DNA from: Squalus acanthias
Taxonomy: Eukaryota
DNA length: 64,000 nt
NCBI GenBank assembly: GCA_030390025.1
Contig: CM059431.1
Span: 104,534,001-104,598,000, forward strand
Direction of reading: 5' to 3'
This document shows, in pieces, positions 30,111 to 57,764 of the stretch (position 1 is its first letter; the number at the start of each line of letters is the position of its first letter). Below the pieces are notes generated by a model. That model made no database searches. It was not told where the DNA came from and saw nothing but the letters and a program-made list of their open reading frames with translations. A program made the position numbers and the translations under genes.

Positions 30111-30282
30111 GGTGTGATAAAGGGCAGTTAGAAAGATTAACTGTAGTCATCTGGCATTGTTCTCTGACTATTTATGCTGTGCCCATATGTATTTCTTCAC
30201 TTCACCTGACGAAGGAGCAGCGCTCCGAAAGCTTGTGATTTCAAATAAAGCTGTTGGACTATAACCTGGTGTTGTGCGACTT
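30111..30282 (+). mobile_element. Short Penelope-like (pLTR) insertion
   Basis: Flanked by direct repeat CTCAGTTAAA (30101-30110, 30283-30292). Carries a hammerhead motif, AATAAA and the same 3' sequence as 53388-53470. Confidence 0.75.
30202..30238 (+). ncRNA. Minimal type I hammerhead ribozyme motif (family 1)
   Basis: TCAC-CTGACGA-A-GGAGC(AGC)GCTCC-GAAA-GC-TT-GTGA: intact core, stems I and II, loopless palindromic stem III. Confidence 0.8.
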
Positions 30283-30959
30283 CTCAGTTAAACTGAACAG
30301 ATGAGCTGTCCGCACGAATTGTGCTGCTTGCAGGCAGCTCGCCGTTTGGGAGGGCAAGAGATCTGGCAGGCTAGGCGTTCGCCACGGGGGAGGGGTGGAA
30401 GTCCGAGGCCTTAAACAGAGCAGCAGGAACATTTTATGAGCAAAGTGATGGGAACCAAGCTTTTGGTCACCTGTCCTAACATCTCCTTATGTGGCTCGGC
30501 GCCAAATTGTGTTTGATAATCGCTCCTGGGGACGTTTTACGACGTTGAAGGCGCTATATAAATGCAAGTTGTTGTTGTTGAAATAATGAAAGCACTTAGG
30601 GCTCAAAATACTGGGCTGAAGATTTTTTTTTAAGTGGTCCTTAGCTGCTGTCAGCTTTCTCTTTAAATAGTGCTCAAATGGTTGCCTTCGACTTGCACTT
30701 CCCGTGGCTTGTGGGCGGGTCGAGGAGGTAACGGCAGCAGCAATGCTGGGCATGTCAGCTGACCCCCATTAGCCTATATTTAGGTGGCCCCTGCCTATTT
30801 CTGGTGTTTGTGCAGGCCGCCTATACTGAGGCCTGCTTGAAAATCGCAACAGACGGGCCTGCAGCAGCGAGTCAGCACTTGATGTTCCTGATTTTCGTCC
30901 CGCTAAGGCTCCGGTTTTAGGCTGCAAACTGAACAGGAGCGAGACAGAAATAGTTCCCA

Positions 30960-52548: not shown

Positions 52549-53297
52549 TATCTAAACATTAATAGATTAAGCCTATATGTTCCTAAACATTGTTTGATCC
52601 TTCTGCTAATGATGGAATTAATGCACCTAAAAGGGGTTTCTGCTGCATTTTCAGTGAAGTAACGCTGGCAGAGAGGGAGCAGCTCCAAGGAATTTCCTGG
52701 CCATAGTTTTATAATGGCATATGAATAAAGGTGTACATTTTGAATAGACAGAAAGAAAGAAAGACTTGCATTTATATAGCACCTTTCATGACCTCAGGAC
52801 ATCCCAAAGCGCTTTACAGCCAATGAAGTACGTTTGAAATGTAGTCACTGCTGTAATTTAGAGGCAGCCAATCTGTGCACAGCAAGCTCCCACAGACAGC
52901 AATGCCATAATGACCAGATAATCTTTTTTAGTGATGTTGTTTGAGGGATAAATATTGACCAGGATAAAAGATGGAACTTTGCAACAGCGTTTGGTGGTTT
53001 GGCAATAAAAAGCACCATGGCCCTCCCCAACAGAACTCCGATGCAGCTGATGTTGACATTAAGCAGCCCTGTGCTACTGAAGTCAATCATTTTCTGGAAC
53101 ACTGTTGGCGGTTAATGAGTCTTCTCCATTATGTCTGGACAGGGATCCTCTCAATTTTTTCCCCCACATGATACTTGTGCACACTCAGGTTTGCTTTGCA
53201 TTTAGAAACAACTCGCAACACATCACTGCACTTCCAACCAATTCATTGTACGTGAAGCGCTTTTGAGAGATGTGATAGGGTTACCATATGAATTCAA

Positions 53298-53511
53298 ATG
53301 TGAGAAGTCGCACAACACCAGGTTATAGTCCAACAGTTTTATTTGAAATCACAAGCTTTCGGAGCGCTGCTCCTTCGTCAGGTGACTTCACCTGACGAAG
53401 GAGCAGCGCTCCGAAAGCTTGTGATTTTAAATAAAAGCTGTTGGACTATAACCTGGTGTTGTGCGACTTCTCACATTTGTCCACCCCAGTCCAACACCGG
53501 CATCTCCACAT
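53298..53511. mobile_element. Palindromic Penelope-like insertion with two opposed hammerhead motifs
   Basis: About 91-bp arms around a CT spacer (53386-53387), a 32-nt 3' extension, and 13-bp TSD CATATGAATTCAA. Confidence 0.85.
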
Positions 53512-54906
53512 CATATGAATTCAAGTTCATTTGGCGGTTGTTGCTTTCGGTTACTTTGTACAAGCACCTTGACCTATGTTTACAAATGAAAATTGGACAT
53601 TCTAGTGCTAAAAGGGTTGACCTACTCAGCTCTTGAATGAAAATCCCTTCCCTCCAAATCTATAATGTTAGATCTCCAGTATTGTTACCACTCGGCAGCT
53701 GAAAATAGAACGATAACTGCAGTAAAGTTGAGGAAAGCTACTCGGAGCAAACCAACTAACTACTAGTATTACCTGGAATTTACAGCATAGAAACAGGCCA
53801 TTCGGCCCAACTGGTCAGTGCTGGTGTTTATGCTCCACACAAGCCTCCTCTCACCCCCTCTTTATCTCACCCTATCAGCCTATCCTATTCCTTTCTCCCT
53901 CAGACACTTATCTAGCTCCCCCTTTCCCTGTGCTATTCACCTCAACCACTCCCTGTGGTAGCGAGTTCCACATTCTAACCACTCTCTTGGTAAAGAAGTT
54001 TCTCCTGAATTCCCCATTGGATTTATTAGTGACTATCTTATATTTATGGCCCCTAGTTTTGGTCTCCCCACAAGTGGAAACATCTTCTCTAAGTCTACCC
54101 TACTGAACCCATTTCATAATTTAAAGACCTCTCAAACTTCAATTTTTGGGAGTAAAGAGCCCCAGCCTGTTCAGTCTTTTCTGATAGTTAGAAGCTCTCA
54201 GTTCTGGTATCATCCTTGTAAACCTTTTTTGGCACCTTCTCCAGTGCCTCTATATCTTTTTTTTATCATATGGAGACCAGAACTGTGCACAGTGCTCCAA
54301 GTGTGGTCTAACCAAGGTTCTGTATAGGTTTACCATATCTTTTCTGCTTTTTCAATTCTATTCCTCTCGAAATGAACCCCAGTGCTTTGTTTGCATTGTT
54401 AACTAGAAATAAGTGGACAAGTGAAAATGGCTGTGGAAAGTCACGTTCCACTTCAGTCCAGTGCCAGGTTAGGCTCGGACTCCAGATTCAGGCAGCATTT
54501 ACACTATAATGTAACATTTGCAAGGCCCCACGCTGCCTGCAATTTTGCGGGTTGTGCTCTCCCTCCTCTGAGTGATACTTGTGTGCATTGCATTGCAGTA
54601 TCTTAAAGCACTTTACACACAATGAATGACCACTGTAATTAGTTGTTAATTTACTTAACTGTTGTTACGTCGCAACTGTGTCAGCTATTCTGCACCAATA
54701 AATATCCCACAAATAGCAGTGAGTGGAATTAACTTTTCAGTGATATTGGTTGAGGGAGGAATGTTGGCCAAGACATCAGGAGAATTTTCCTTCAAATAGT
54801 GCCACGGGATCTTCGAGGTCCACTTGAACCACTGCAACAGCTGGAGCGGATCCACAGTATGACACCTCCAACAGAGCAGCACTCCCTTAGCACTGCAGAC
54901 TACAAT

Positions 54907-56818: not shown

Positions 56819-57764
56819 GGGCCAAAAATTCGGCCCTTCCCGGGTGAGTACGGACTGTGTACTCACCCGTAAGGCGTCCCGAAGTGCCGGTTTCCTGCAT
56901 GCACTGCGCATGCGCGGGAAACCGGAACTTCCGGTCTGGTGAAGGGGGCGGTTCCTAGGTGAACCGCGTGCGCGGTAGAGGCTGCGCGCACGCAGCAAAC
57001 TTAGGTTTTTTTTCAGGTTTCTCCGGGAGGGTAAGTATTGAAGAACCTGCACATTTAAAAAGGACATGATGTGGAGATGCCGGCGTTGGACTGGGGTGGA
57101 CAAAAATGAGAAGTCGCACAACACCAGGTTATAGTCCAACAGATTTATTTAAAATTACAAAATTACAAAATCCGAAAGCTTGTAATTTTAAATAAATCTG
57201 TTGGACTATAACCTGGTGTTGTGCGACTTCTCATTTAAAAAGGAGGCGCAGGACCCGTTTTCAAAAAGGTAAGTGGTTAATTAAGTATAATTTAAAACTT
57301 TTTCAACAGGTTTATCTTTTTTAGATACTTTAAAGAAAGGTAAGTTTATTTTTAGCACTGTTAAAAAGTATTTTAATTTTTCAAAAATTTAAATTTTTGT
57401 TTAAAGTGGTTAATTTATTTAACTATAGTAATTTTATAAATGTGATGGGTTTTTAAAAACAATATTTTAAGTTTAGCTGTTCTTTTGGGGCCGATTTCAA
57501 TTCACAGATTTGACAGGTCTCCTGTCAAATCTATGAATGAAAGATGGTCTGCTGCCATTGGCTCTCCATGGCTCACGTGATCCCAGGGGACGCATCGCAC
57601 TAACTACGCCCCTAAGACACGCAAGCACTGCGCGCCGGCACTTGGAGCAGGCCCAGGAACTGAAGTTCCCGTGGGCCCAAAACACAACGGCAGGCGCGGT
57701 AGGTAAGTGCGCGCGCGATCGATCCTTACCCCCGCGGCAAGCCGGAGAGGCGAATTTCAGGGCC
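56819..57764. mobile_element. Harbinger-like element with an AT-rich centre, inserted in an L2 fragment
   Basis: Ends GGGCCAAAAATTCG/CGAATTTCAGGGCC, TSD ATT. Confidence 0.78.
57065..57231. mobile_element. Palindromic Penelope-like insertion with a deleted centre
   Basis: Inverted relative of 53298-53511, with 13-bp TSD CATTTAAAAAGGA. Confidence 0.82.

Follow-up and report, generated by a model that had tools for sequence, protein, structure and literature searches.

The palindrome in the window, that is, the whole 64-kb stretch of DNA analysed here, which is part of a 3.7-Gb vertebrate assembly, is a genuine 214-bp insertion flanked by a 13-bp target site duplication (TSD). It is best explained as the 5' untranslated leader of a Penelope-like element (PLE), inserted de novo and dead on arrival. 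Short insertions of this kind number in the thousands, and the present one is a usual product of a known element; the junction pattern of the family provides a modest clue to the unsettled mechanism by which PLEs insert. With a probability of about 0.7, each hairpin of this family was built anew from two cDNAs, primed approximately 35 nt apart on a sense, probably capped RNA, which ran off the template and were joined at their ends.

Structure of the insert and its parent element

When aligned globally, the reverse complement of 53295-53385 and the segment 53388-53479 gave 90 matches, one substitution and one 1-nt indel, with a palindrome centre of 2 nt and an extension of 32 nt at 53480-53511. 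The 13-mer at 53285-53297 is identical to that at 53512-53524. These features had been described in an earlier, sequence-only reading of this DNA, and they were confirmed by the alignment and by an empty orthologous site in run X20, a related genome with approximately 94 to 97% identity over the flanks. The X20 contig follows the window over 52937-53281, shows two differing letters and continues with 53512-53803. Because this empty site carries a single 13-mer, all 13 bases belong to the target, and the insert corresponds to 53298-53511, with a unique tail of 35 nt. The insertion and the TSD of the earlier reading stood, and its size of about 210 bp was refined to 214 bp; the boundaries are ambiguous by 3 nt, because the first 3 nt and the last 3 nt of the duplication match the element as well. 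Element positions are numbered from the A at window position 53385, the predicted transcription start (+1), with the ATG at +128. The parts of the insert are as follows.

53285-53297, no strand: left copy of the TSD; the 3 nt at its right end are complementary to element +92 to +94 as well (priming overlap)
53298-53385, minus strand: inverted arm without tail, an antisense copy of element +4 to +91
53384-53387, no strand: inversion junction; the right arm has its +1, the initiator A, at 53385
53385-53476, plus strand: sense arm, the pLTR part of the 5' leader, +1 to +91, with a private substitution and a 1-nt insertion
53477-53511, plus strand: tail, on one side only, element +92 to +126; it stops just short of the ORF start codon at +128
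53512-53524, no strand: right copy of the TSD; it opens with 3 nt identical to those with which the element runs on into the ATG

The base at 53384 can be read as an extra G, giving a 2-nt overlap with the left arm, and this reading is ambiguous in the present copy because the left arm supplies a G as well. The 240-nt RNA was predicted to fold into one long stem (-175.6 kcal/mol, z -26.5), and none of 200 shuffles was equally stable. An origin as a MITE or foldback DNA transposon was rejected, since the insert has a unique tail at one end instead of TIRs reaching both TSDs, its ends vary by several nt instead of being constant, and its parent is an RT element. The window is also rich in other multi-copy interspersed repeats, for example at 52746-52964 and 53764-54110; contigs of X1 and X5 (which we guess to be RNA) and of X19 match repeats, not the unique flanks, and have no bearing on transcription of the locus.

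By its sequence relationships, the insert appears to be the 5' leader of an abundant autonomous Neptune-type PLE, with the putative clade assignment based on motif alone. Exact matches to the tail (29 nt) number 9,124, there are 2,922 hairpins with both hammerhead cores no more than 30 nt apart, and two further family members lie within the window. Three loci (L007, L077 and L078) extend upstream into the 3' end of an ORF encoding RT-thumb, CxxxxCxxC and GIY-YIG motifs. The sense arm is contiguous with the TATA/Inr and the ORF 3' end in L007 and L078, and with the ORF start in L093 and L094. The ORF end shares 90% identity with a shark protein that carries an RVT_1 domain, and the nearest protein homologues are annotated from sharks. 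At the other end, the tail runs on into a constant ATG-GCT-ACT in 49 of the 100 matches listed (of 216; counted by eye), and the downstream reading frame aligns with residues 1-205 of a homologue 881 aa long (53% identity, E 1e-67). The parent ORF, approximately 880 aa by homology, carries RVT_1, a CxxxxCxxC linker (CHGNLCKTC in the L077 translation; CxxxxCxxC in P0001, P0004 and P0005) and YIGET/H..H/NRD endonuclease motifs, so that a Zn-finger-like motif lies between the RT and the C-terminal endonuclease, as expected of the Neptune clade. Pfam returned no family for the 310-aa C-terminal ORF piece alone, no long ORF was found in L091 (upstream of L077), and no intact full-length element was recovered.

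A TATATAT lies at -30 relative to +1, and +1 itself is in an initiator-like context that fits YYANWYY, which we take to be the initiator consensus. Because the right arm and the tail span the distance from TATA/initiator to the ORF ATG, they represent the complete predicted 5' leader. The identification of an RT and GIY-YIG parent ORF bears out the Penelope-like origin, with an inverted pLTR and a short tail, that had been proposed from the letters of this DNA; parent, inverted 5'-truncated copy, one-sided tail (32-35 nt here, within the 30-40 bp of the PLE form) and TSD are features of EN+ PLE insertions.

Two observations concern the surroundings of family members and of the ORF. CR1/L2-type RT fragments are common in flanking loci. 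Moreover, ORF-end pieces with 72-85% identity are found in the annotated shark host proteins P0006, P0008, P0009 and P0010 (NOXP20-like, septin 5a, XRCC5 and PPP1R12A-like isoforms), which reflects either exonisation or gene-model artefacts.

Putative hammerhead motifs on both strands

The proposal of a hammerhead on each strand, with a predicted cut after CUU at 53420, agrees with the motifs found in both arms.

53388-53424, plus strand: putative minimal type I hammerhead; predicted cut 53420/53421
53349-53385, minus strand: putative minimal type I hammerhead, mirror of the plus-strand motif; predicted cut between 53353 and 53352
Plus-strand motif, first parts: stem I 53388-53391/53421-53424; core 53392-53398; extra A 53399
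Plus-strand motif, further parts: stem II 53400-53404/53408-53412; GAAA 53413-53416; predicted cut after 53420

The layout consists of a 4-bp stem I, the core, the extra A, stem II and GAAA-GC-UU, with a palindromic AGCU in place of helix III. The core, an extra base after A9, a G-C first pair of stem II, a helix III remnant and an NUH triplet are all present. This fits the description of minimal hammerheads in PMC4209133 (no helix III, palindromic remnant, extra base after A9, G-C closing pair) and is consistent with the minimal, dimer-type call made earlier; in that paper, monomers are described as not cleaving and dimers as cleaving weakly. A search against Rfam gave no hammerhead at gathering score, the best being HH10 with 15.3 bits and E 7.6, and the Rfam miRNA matches merely reflect the long stem of the palindrome. 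Palindromes of this kind score high against miRNA models, and an annotation might mistake them for MITEs, pre-miRNAs or retrozymes.

Among 12 hand-picked family variants, 97.2% of cells were paired, the length of loop II was variable, and one stem pair was changed on both sides (CG in 7, UA in 5; probably one or two events), which is suggestive of stem pairing being kept. The family-wide motif list was pulled with a pattern that requires the core, and conservation of the core is not inferable from it. The predicted pair probabilities of stems I and II were 0.63-0.81 in the single arm or leader and 0.0 in the full hairpin; in these models, the suggestion that a long hairpin would mask the ribozymes holds, and a read-through transcript of the locus would lock both hammerheads in a 90-bp stem. 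The motif of PAc is described in PMC11167929 as protein-assisted and dispensable for insertion. In the mechanism proposed below, the hammerheads would be passengers of the leader.

Junctions, ends and the proposed insertion mechanism

Copies with the same inversion point and distinct TSDs, as sought in the sequence-only reading, were found in number: the exact 26-nt junction of the present insert occurs in 415 copies, most with their own TSDs. It is the commonest junction, with a share of about one in seven among both-core hairpins (415 against 2,922; the anchors of the two counts differ slightly). An unbiased sample of 30 tail-anchored loci in coordinate order, 29 of them independent, comprised 22 simple hairpins, 3 solo loci and 4 complex ones. 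In this sample, the present junction was seen in only 1 of the 22 simple hairpins; 12 had both cores and 11 had an arm end at -2 to +2.

The outer ends are much more uniform. Rows with ends and TSDs were obtained from 53 of 87 loci, the others being solo, complex or without detectable duplication. The arm without tail ends at +85 to +91 in 47 of these 53 hairpins (mode +90), the tail ends at +125 to +131 in 41 (mode +128), and the TSD measures 12-14 bp in 43; the TSDs are 70.5% AT. Junctions are variable yet non-random. The option of a stereotyped product, raised at the outset, agrees with these fixed outer ends and with the pile-up of arm ends at +1 described below.

As for descent, the 33 same-junction loci resolved into 14 haplotype strings, with both alleles of site +52 mirrored in both arms; therefore, the identical junction arises repeatedly on different source backgrounds. 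Sites +89/+90 were left out because they overlap the TSD, and discordance at site +44 (17 of 69) was discounted as ascertainment by the query sequence. These counts bear on the possibility that the insert is a non-autonomous, retrozyme- or SINE-like unit, in which a transcript of the entire hairpin would be inserted anew by the PLE enzyme. The 415 exact copies, most with their own TSDs, could be taken as progeny of such a unit, retrozymes are reported to be pLTR-derived (bioRxiv 10.64898/2026.07.22.740005), and one unusual junction is common to two loci 550 kb apart with different TSDs and is found elsewhere only as a duplicate. Nevertheless, the haplotype strings, the single occurrence among the 22 unbiased hairpins, the lack of tandem arrangement and the lack of a promoter in the insert (the TATA at -30 is missing) all speak against it. 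The present junction is also the one favoured by the 2-nt overlap with an extra G, which would explain why it is the commonest. We consider such a unit highly improbable, and the earlier suggestion of a retrozyme-like mobile unit was abandoned, since junctions differ among copies and the same junction sits on many haplotypes.

The unusual junction belongs to L068 and L070/L071 (C1, within 550 kb), which have an identical 290-bp asymmetric hairpin junction, at two target sites with different TSDs and in one duplicate; it occurs nowhere else in the genome. The arms are discordant in L070, and these data suggest ectopic gene conversion, the alternative being occasional or local re-copying of a hairpin. 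Several further loci deserve mention. The window insert (L001) and L002, 5.7 Mb apart on the same contig, have the same private substitution and insertion, in the tail arm only; their junctions and TSDs differ, and the shared variants may reflect query selection. L087/L088 and L024/L073 are independent insertions into the same or nearly the same 12-bp target inside other repeats, a hint at preferred target sites. Within the window, 57066-57233 (minus strand) is a sister-subfamily hairpin with tail and 13-bp TSD and no hammerhead core, whose tail arm begins two bases before the predicted ribozyme cut, and 30150-30286 (plus strand) is an arm without tail that extends across the TATA region on its upstream side, ends near +88 and has no inverted partner in the vicinity.

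To locate the inner ends, arms with +1 to +22 intact were followed upstream. The match was lost at -1 in 4,136 of 18,703 arms (22%) and, among the remaining arms, at -2 in 639 of 14,567 (4.4%), against a per-site background loss of 41 in 2,924 (1.4%). Random inversion points, expected for ordinary truncation, are not compatible with this edge. Plain truncation was likewise dropped, and what remains of that proposal is that one arm usually ends at the predicted transcription start, as a complete leader copy. Arm ends were also counted by eye in 100 matches listed of 6,824, rows preselected for ends in the start-site region: 28 at +1, 21 at +2, 2 at +3, 18 at +4, 5 at +5, 2 at +6, 4 at +7, 4 at +8, 3 at -1, 4 at -2, and 9 in other subfamilies. 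Most arms with +1 to +22 (14,567 of 18,703) continue upstream; presumably these approximately four fifths come from the downstream (3') pLTR of read-through transcripts, and the run-off class makes up about one fifth.

The base found at the edge was G in excess. Among the 100 matches listed of arms breaking at -1, the base there was G in 58, T in 28 and A in 14. In four junction contexts, an extra base templated by neither arm was G in 31, 6, 4 and 9 loci and another base in none, so that the untemplated base was G in 50 of 50 cases; the templated rest in these contexts, in the same order, was 21 C plus 6 T loci, 5, 7 and 1. Forty of the 50 come from the two contexts (31 and 9) where templated insertion from the opposite arm could also yield G, and the contexts without this alternative (6 and 4) gave G in 10 against 0. 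The extra G follows a G in two contexts (31 and 6). A second-subfamily control of the edge consisted mostly of intact copies, with only 2 rows having a G before the shifted initiator. In full-length L1 insertions, an extra G is described as a mark of cap copying (PMC11702581); terminal transfer at the template end would look the same.

The +1 edge might instead mark a site of processing or stalling that is connected with the hammerhead, such as a splice site, an RT pause or a nuclease cut, with the hairpins as ordinary truncations. The proximity of +1 to stem I, only 3 nt ahead of it, would suit this view, as would the intron of the D. virilis Penelope, which ends at helix I (PMC4209133), and a smaller surplus of ends where the ribozyme is predicted to cut, with 22-23 ends counted there among 100 matches listed (of 1,424), compared with 5-13 per neighbouring position. 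However, a 3-nt overlap with the opposite arm accounts for 8 of these 22-23 ends, and the excess is a weak hint, without a matched control window, of genomic ends at the predicted cut. An RT moving 3' to 5' would pause at the 3' side of the stem, and the TATA at -30 and the initiator suit a start at +1. A splice-site origin was rejected, as there is no AG ahead of +1 and no constant upstream exon was seen. Overall, we hold a processing or stalling point to be quite unlikely.

We favour the mechanism of twin priming and run-off introduced above, which would proceed as follows. The RT-GIY-YIG protein would make staggered nicks approximately 13 bp apart in AT-rich DNA, and the 3' end of each nick would prime a cDNA on sense RNA, one near +128 (the tail side) and the other near +90. 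With priming on the leader at the mRNA 5' end, the cDNAs would run off after approximately 90 to 130 nt, and a C would be added at run-off, either by copying of the cap or by terminal transfer. After trimming, microhomology would allow the antisense 3' ends of both cDNAs to be joined, and the product would be a head-to-head palindrome with its centre close to the start site. In vitro, the PAc protein was reported to nick and extend both strands, with reverse transcription initiated at two internal positions, one at each boundary of the tail (PMC11167929). A partial tandem at L095:1-551 consists of a hairpin, its tail, approximately 72 nt of ORF and a second leader that begins at +1 after a G, an arrangement which suggests a template jump after run-off.

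The arms themselves indicate how many priming events and templates were involved. Among the 22 unbiased hairpins, 6 have an arm without tail that extends upstream beyond the tail arm by at least 5 nt, and the reverse is seen in 11; because either arm can outreach the other while the tail stays one-sided, both arms were likely primed separately. In 55 hairpins with both loop II regions read (two mis-paired rows were dropped), a 1-nt loop II insertion was present in both arms of 8 hairpins and in one arm of 6, compared with approximately 2 and 18 expected if the arms were independent. From these counts, most arm pairs share a source, and the minority may represent two RNA molecules or later conversion.

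Sharing of a source is also what a single-molecule route would give, in which the same element inserts de novo and the inversion arises when the 3' end of a cDNA folds on itself or by self-priming of antisense RNA. The latter is the route proposed for palindromes in PMC3846280, where a sense template was left open; the mechanism behind the inverted pLTR and tail is likewise left open there and is described as undefined in PMC8557442. The arms do mostly agree, with site +52 concordant in 64 of 69 hairpins against 31.7 expected, microhomologies of 1-6 nt are present at many junctions, and among 30 loci of the same-junction set, 24 have the tail on the +1 arm, 4 have it on the opposite arm and 2 have no tail. 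Such a fold-back is unlikely in our view, since each arm can carry sequence absent from the other, in both directions, the arm without tail has a fixed end of its own, variants at the source level differ between the arms of 6 of 14 carriers, and the +1 edge with its extra G indicates the end of a sense template. Judged from sequence, the counts favour a sense template over antisense self-priming.

It is conceivable, if rather doubtful, that the hairpins are a fossil readout of the PLE reaction in vivo, recording the capped start to the base and twin priming at two fixed sites of the sense leader, with some insertions from two RNAs possibly held by the dimer-dependent hammerhead and a minor class with ribozyme-cut 5' ends. 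If true, the choice between sense twin priming and antisense self-priming would be settled, and the minimal hammerhead would pair templates rather than only cut. For the mechanism of separate priming and run-off, a base-resolution junction census in a shark genome complements the in vitro results of PMC11167929 in vivo, cheaply, and yields direct predictions on the start site, the extra G, the two templates and the cut-site ends. The start-site edge, the extra G and the two-way arm asymmetry were not found in the literature searched, which comprised main texts, with Repbase/Dfam and most subscription papers outside.

Comparison with known systems

The insert resembles the EN+ PLE insertions described in PMC8557442 (its fig. 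2) and PMC3846280 (Pen2a_Av), which have the form of an inverted, 5'-truncated pLTR with a one-sided tail of 30-40 bp and a TSD. A TATA and a TCACT-type initiator in the pLTR, a palindrome at the inverted junction and a tail that reaches the ORF start are likewise shared with the element of PMC3846280. Unlike those insertions, the shark arms enclose no ORF, the whole 214-bp insert being leader, the TSD is 12-14 bp instead of 8-10, and the position of the junction is quantified here and tied to +1. The C-terminal GIY-YIG with its Zn-finger-like linker is as described for the Neptune clade in PMC8557442.

With PAc, the Poseidon element of Anolis (PMC11167929), the family would have in common the nicking and extension of both strands, two internal RT starts that bound the tail and a hammerhead not needed for insertion, and it shares the AT-rich targets. 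The PAc ORF begins within the hammerhead, and its RT starts lie 111-118 nt into the ORF, whereas in the shark family the hammerhead and the two inferred priming sites are located no further downstream than the ATG. PAc belongs to the Poseidon clade and the present parent is Neptune-type; run-off at the RNA 5' end is not part of the main text of PMC11167929.

The putative hammerheads resemble the minimal PLE motifs of PMC4209133 in lacking helix III, in the palindromic positions 15.2-16.2, in the short helix I, in the extra base between 9 and 10.1 and in G10.1-C11.1, but helix II has 5 bp instead of 7-8. Schistosoma is described in that paper as having paired motifs on opposite strands, 100-700 bp apart; the shark motifs are approximately 6 nt apart and mutually antisense, and therefore the usual tandem dimer is impossible.

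Animal non-LTR retrozymes (PMC7229834; bioRxiv 10.64898/2026.07.22.740005) are, like the insert, short, non-coding and PLE-related, with a type I hammerhead and a long TSD. They are described as tandems in head-to-tail orientation, of 150-450 bp, whose canonical motifs set circular RNA free, whereas the shark insert is a single head-to-head palindrome. Tandems were rare among the loci examined (L077, L095), and variable junctions, with the same junction on many haplotypes, do not indicate descent from a fixed unit.

Finally, as in L1 twin priming (PMC11702581), the second strand would prime a second cDNA, joining would use microhomology, and complete 5' ends carry an extra G. L1 differs in that its second primer has no set internal annealing site and its arms have no overlap; in the shark family, both inferred priming sites are fixed and the two arms copy the same sequence.
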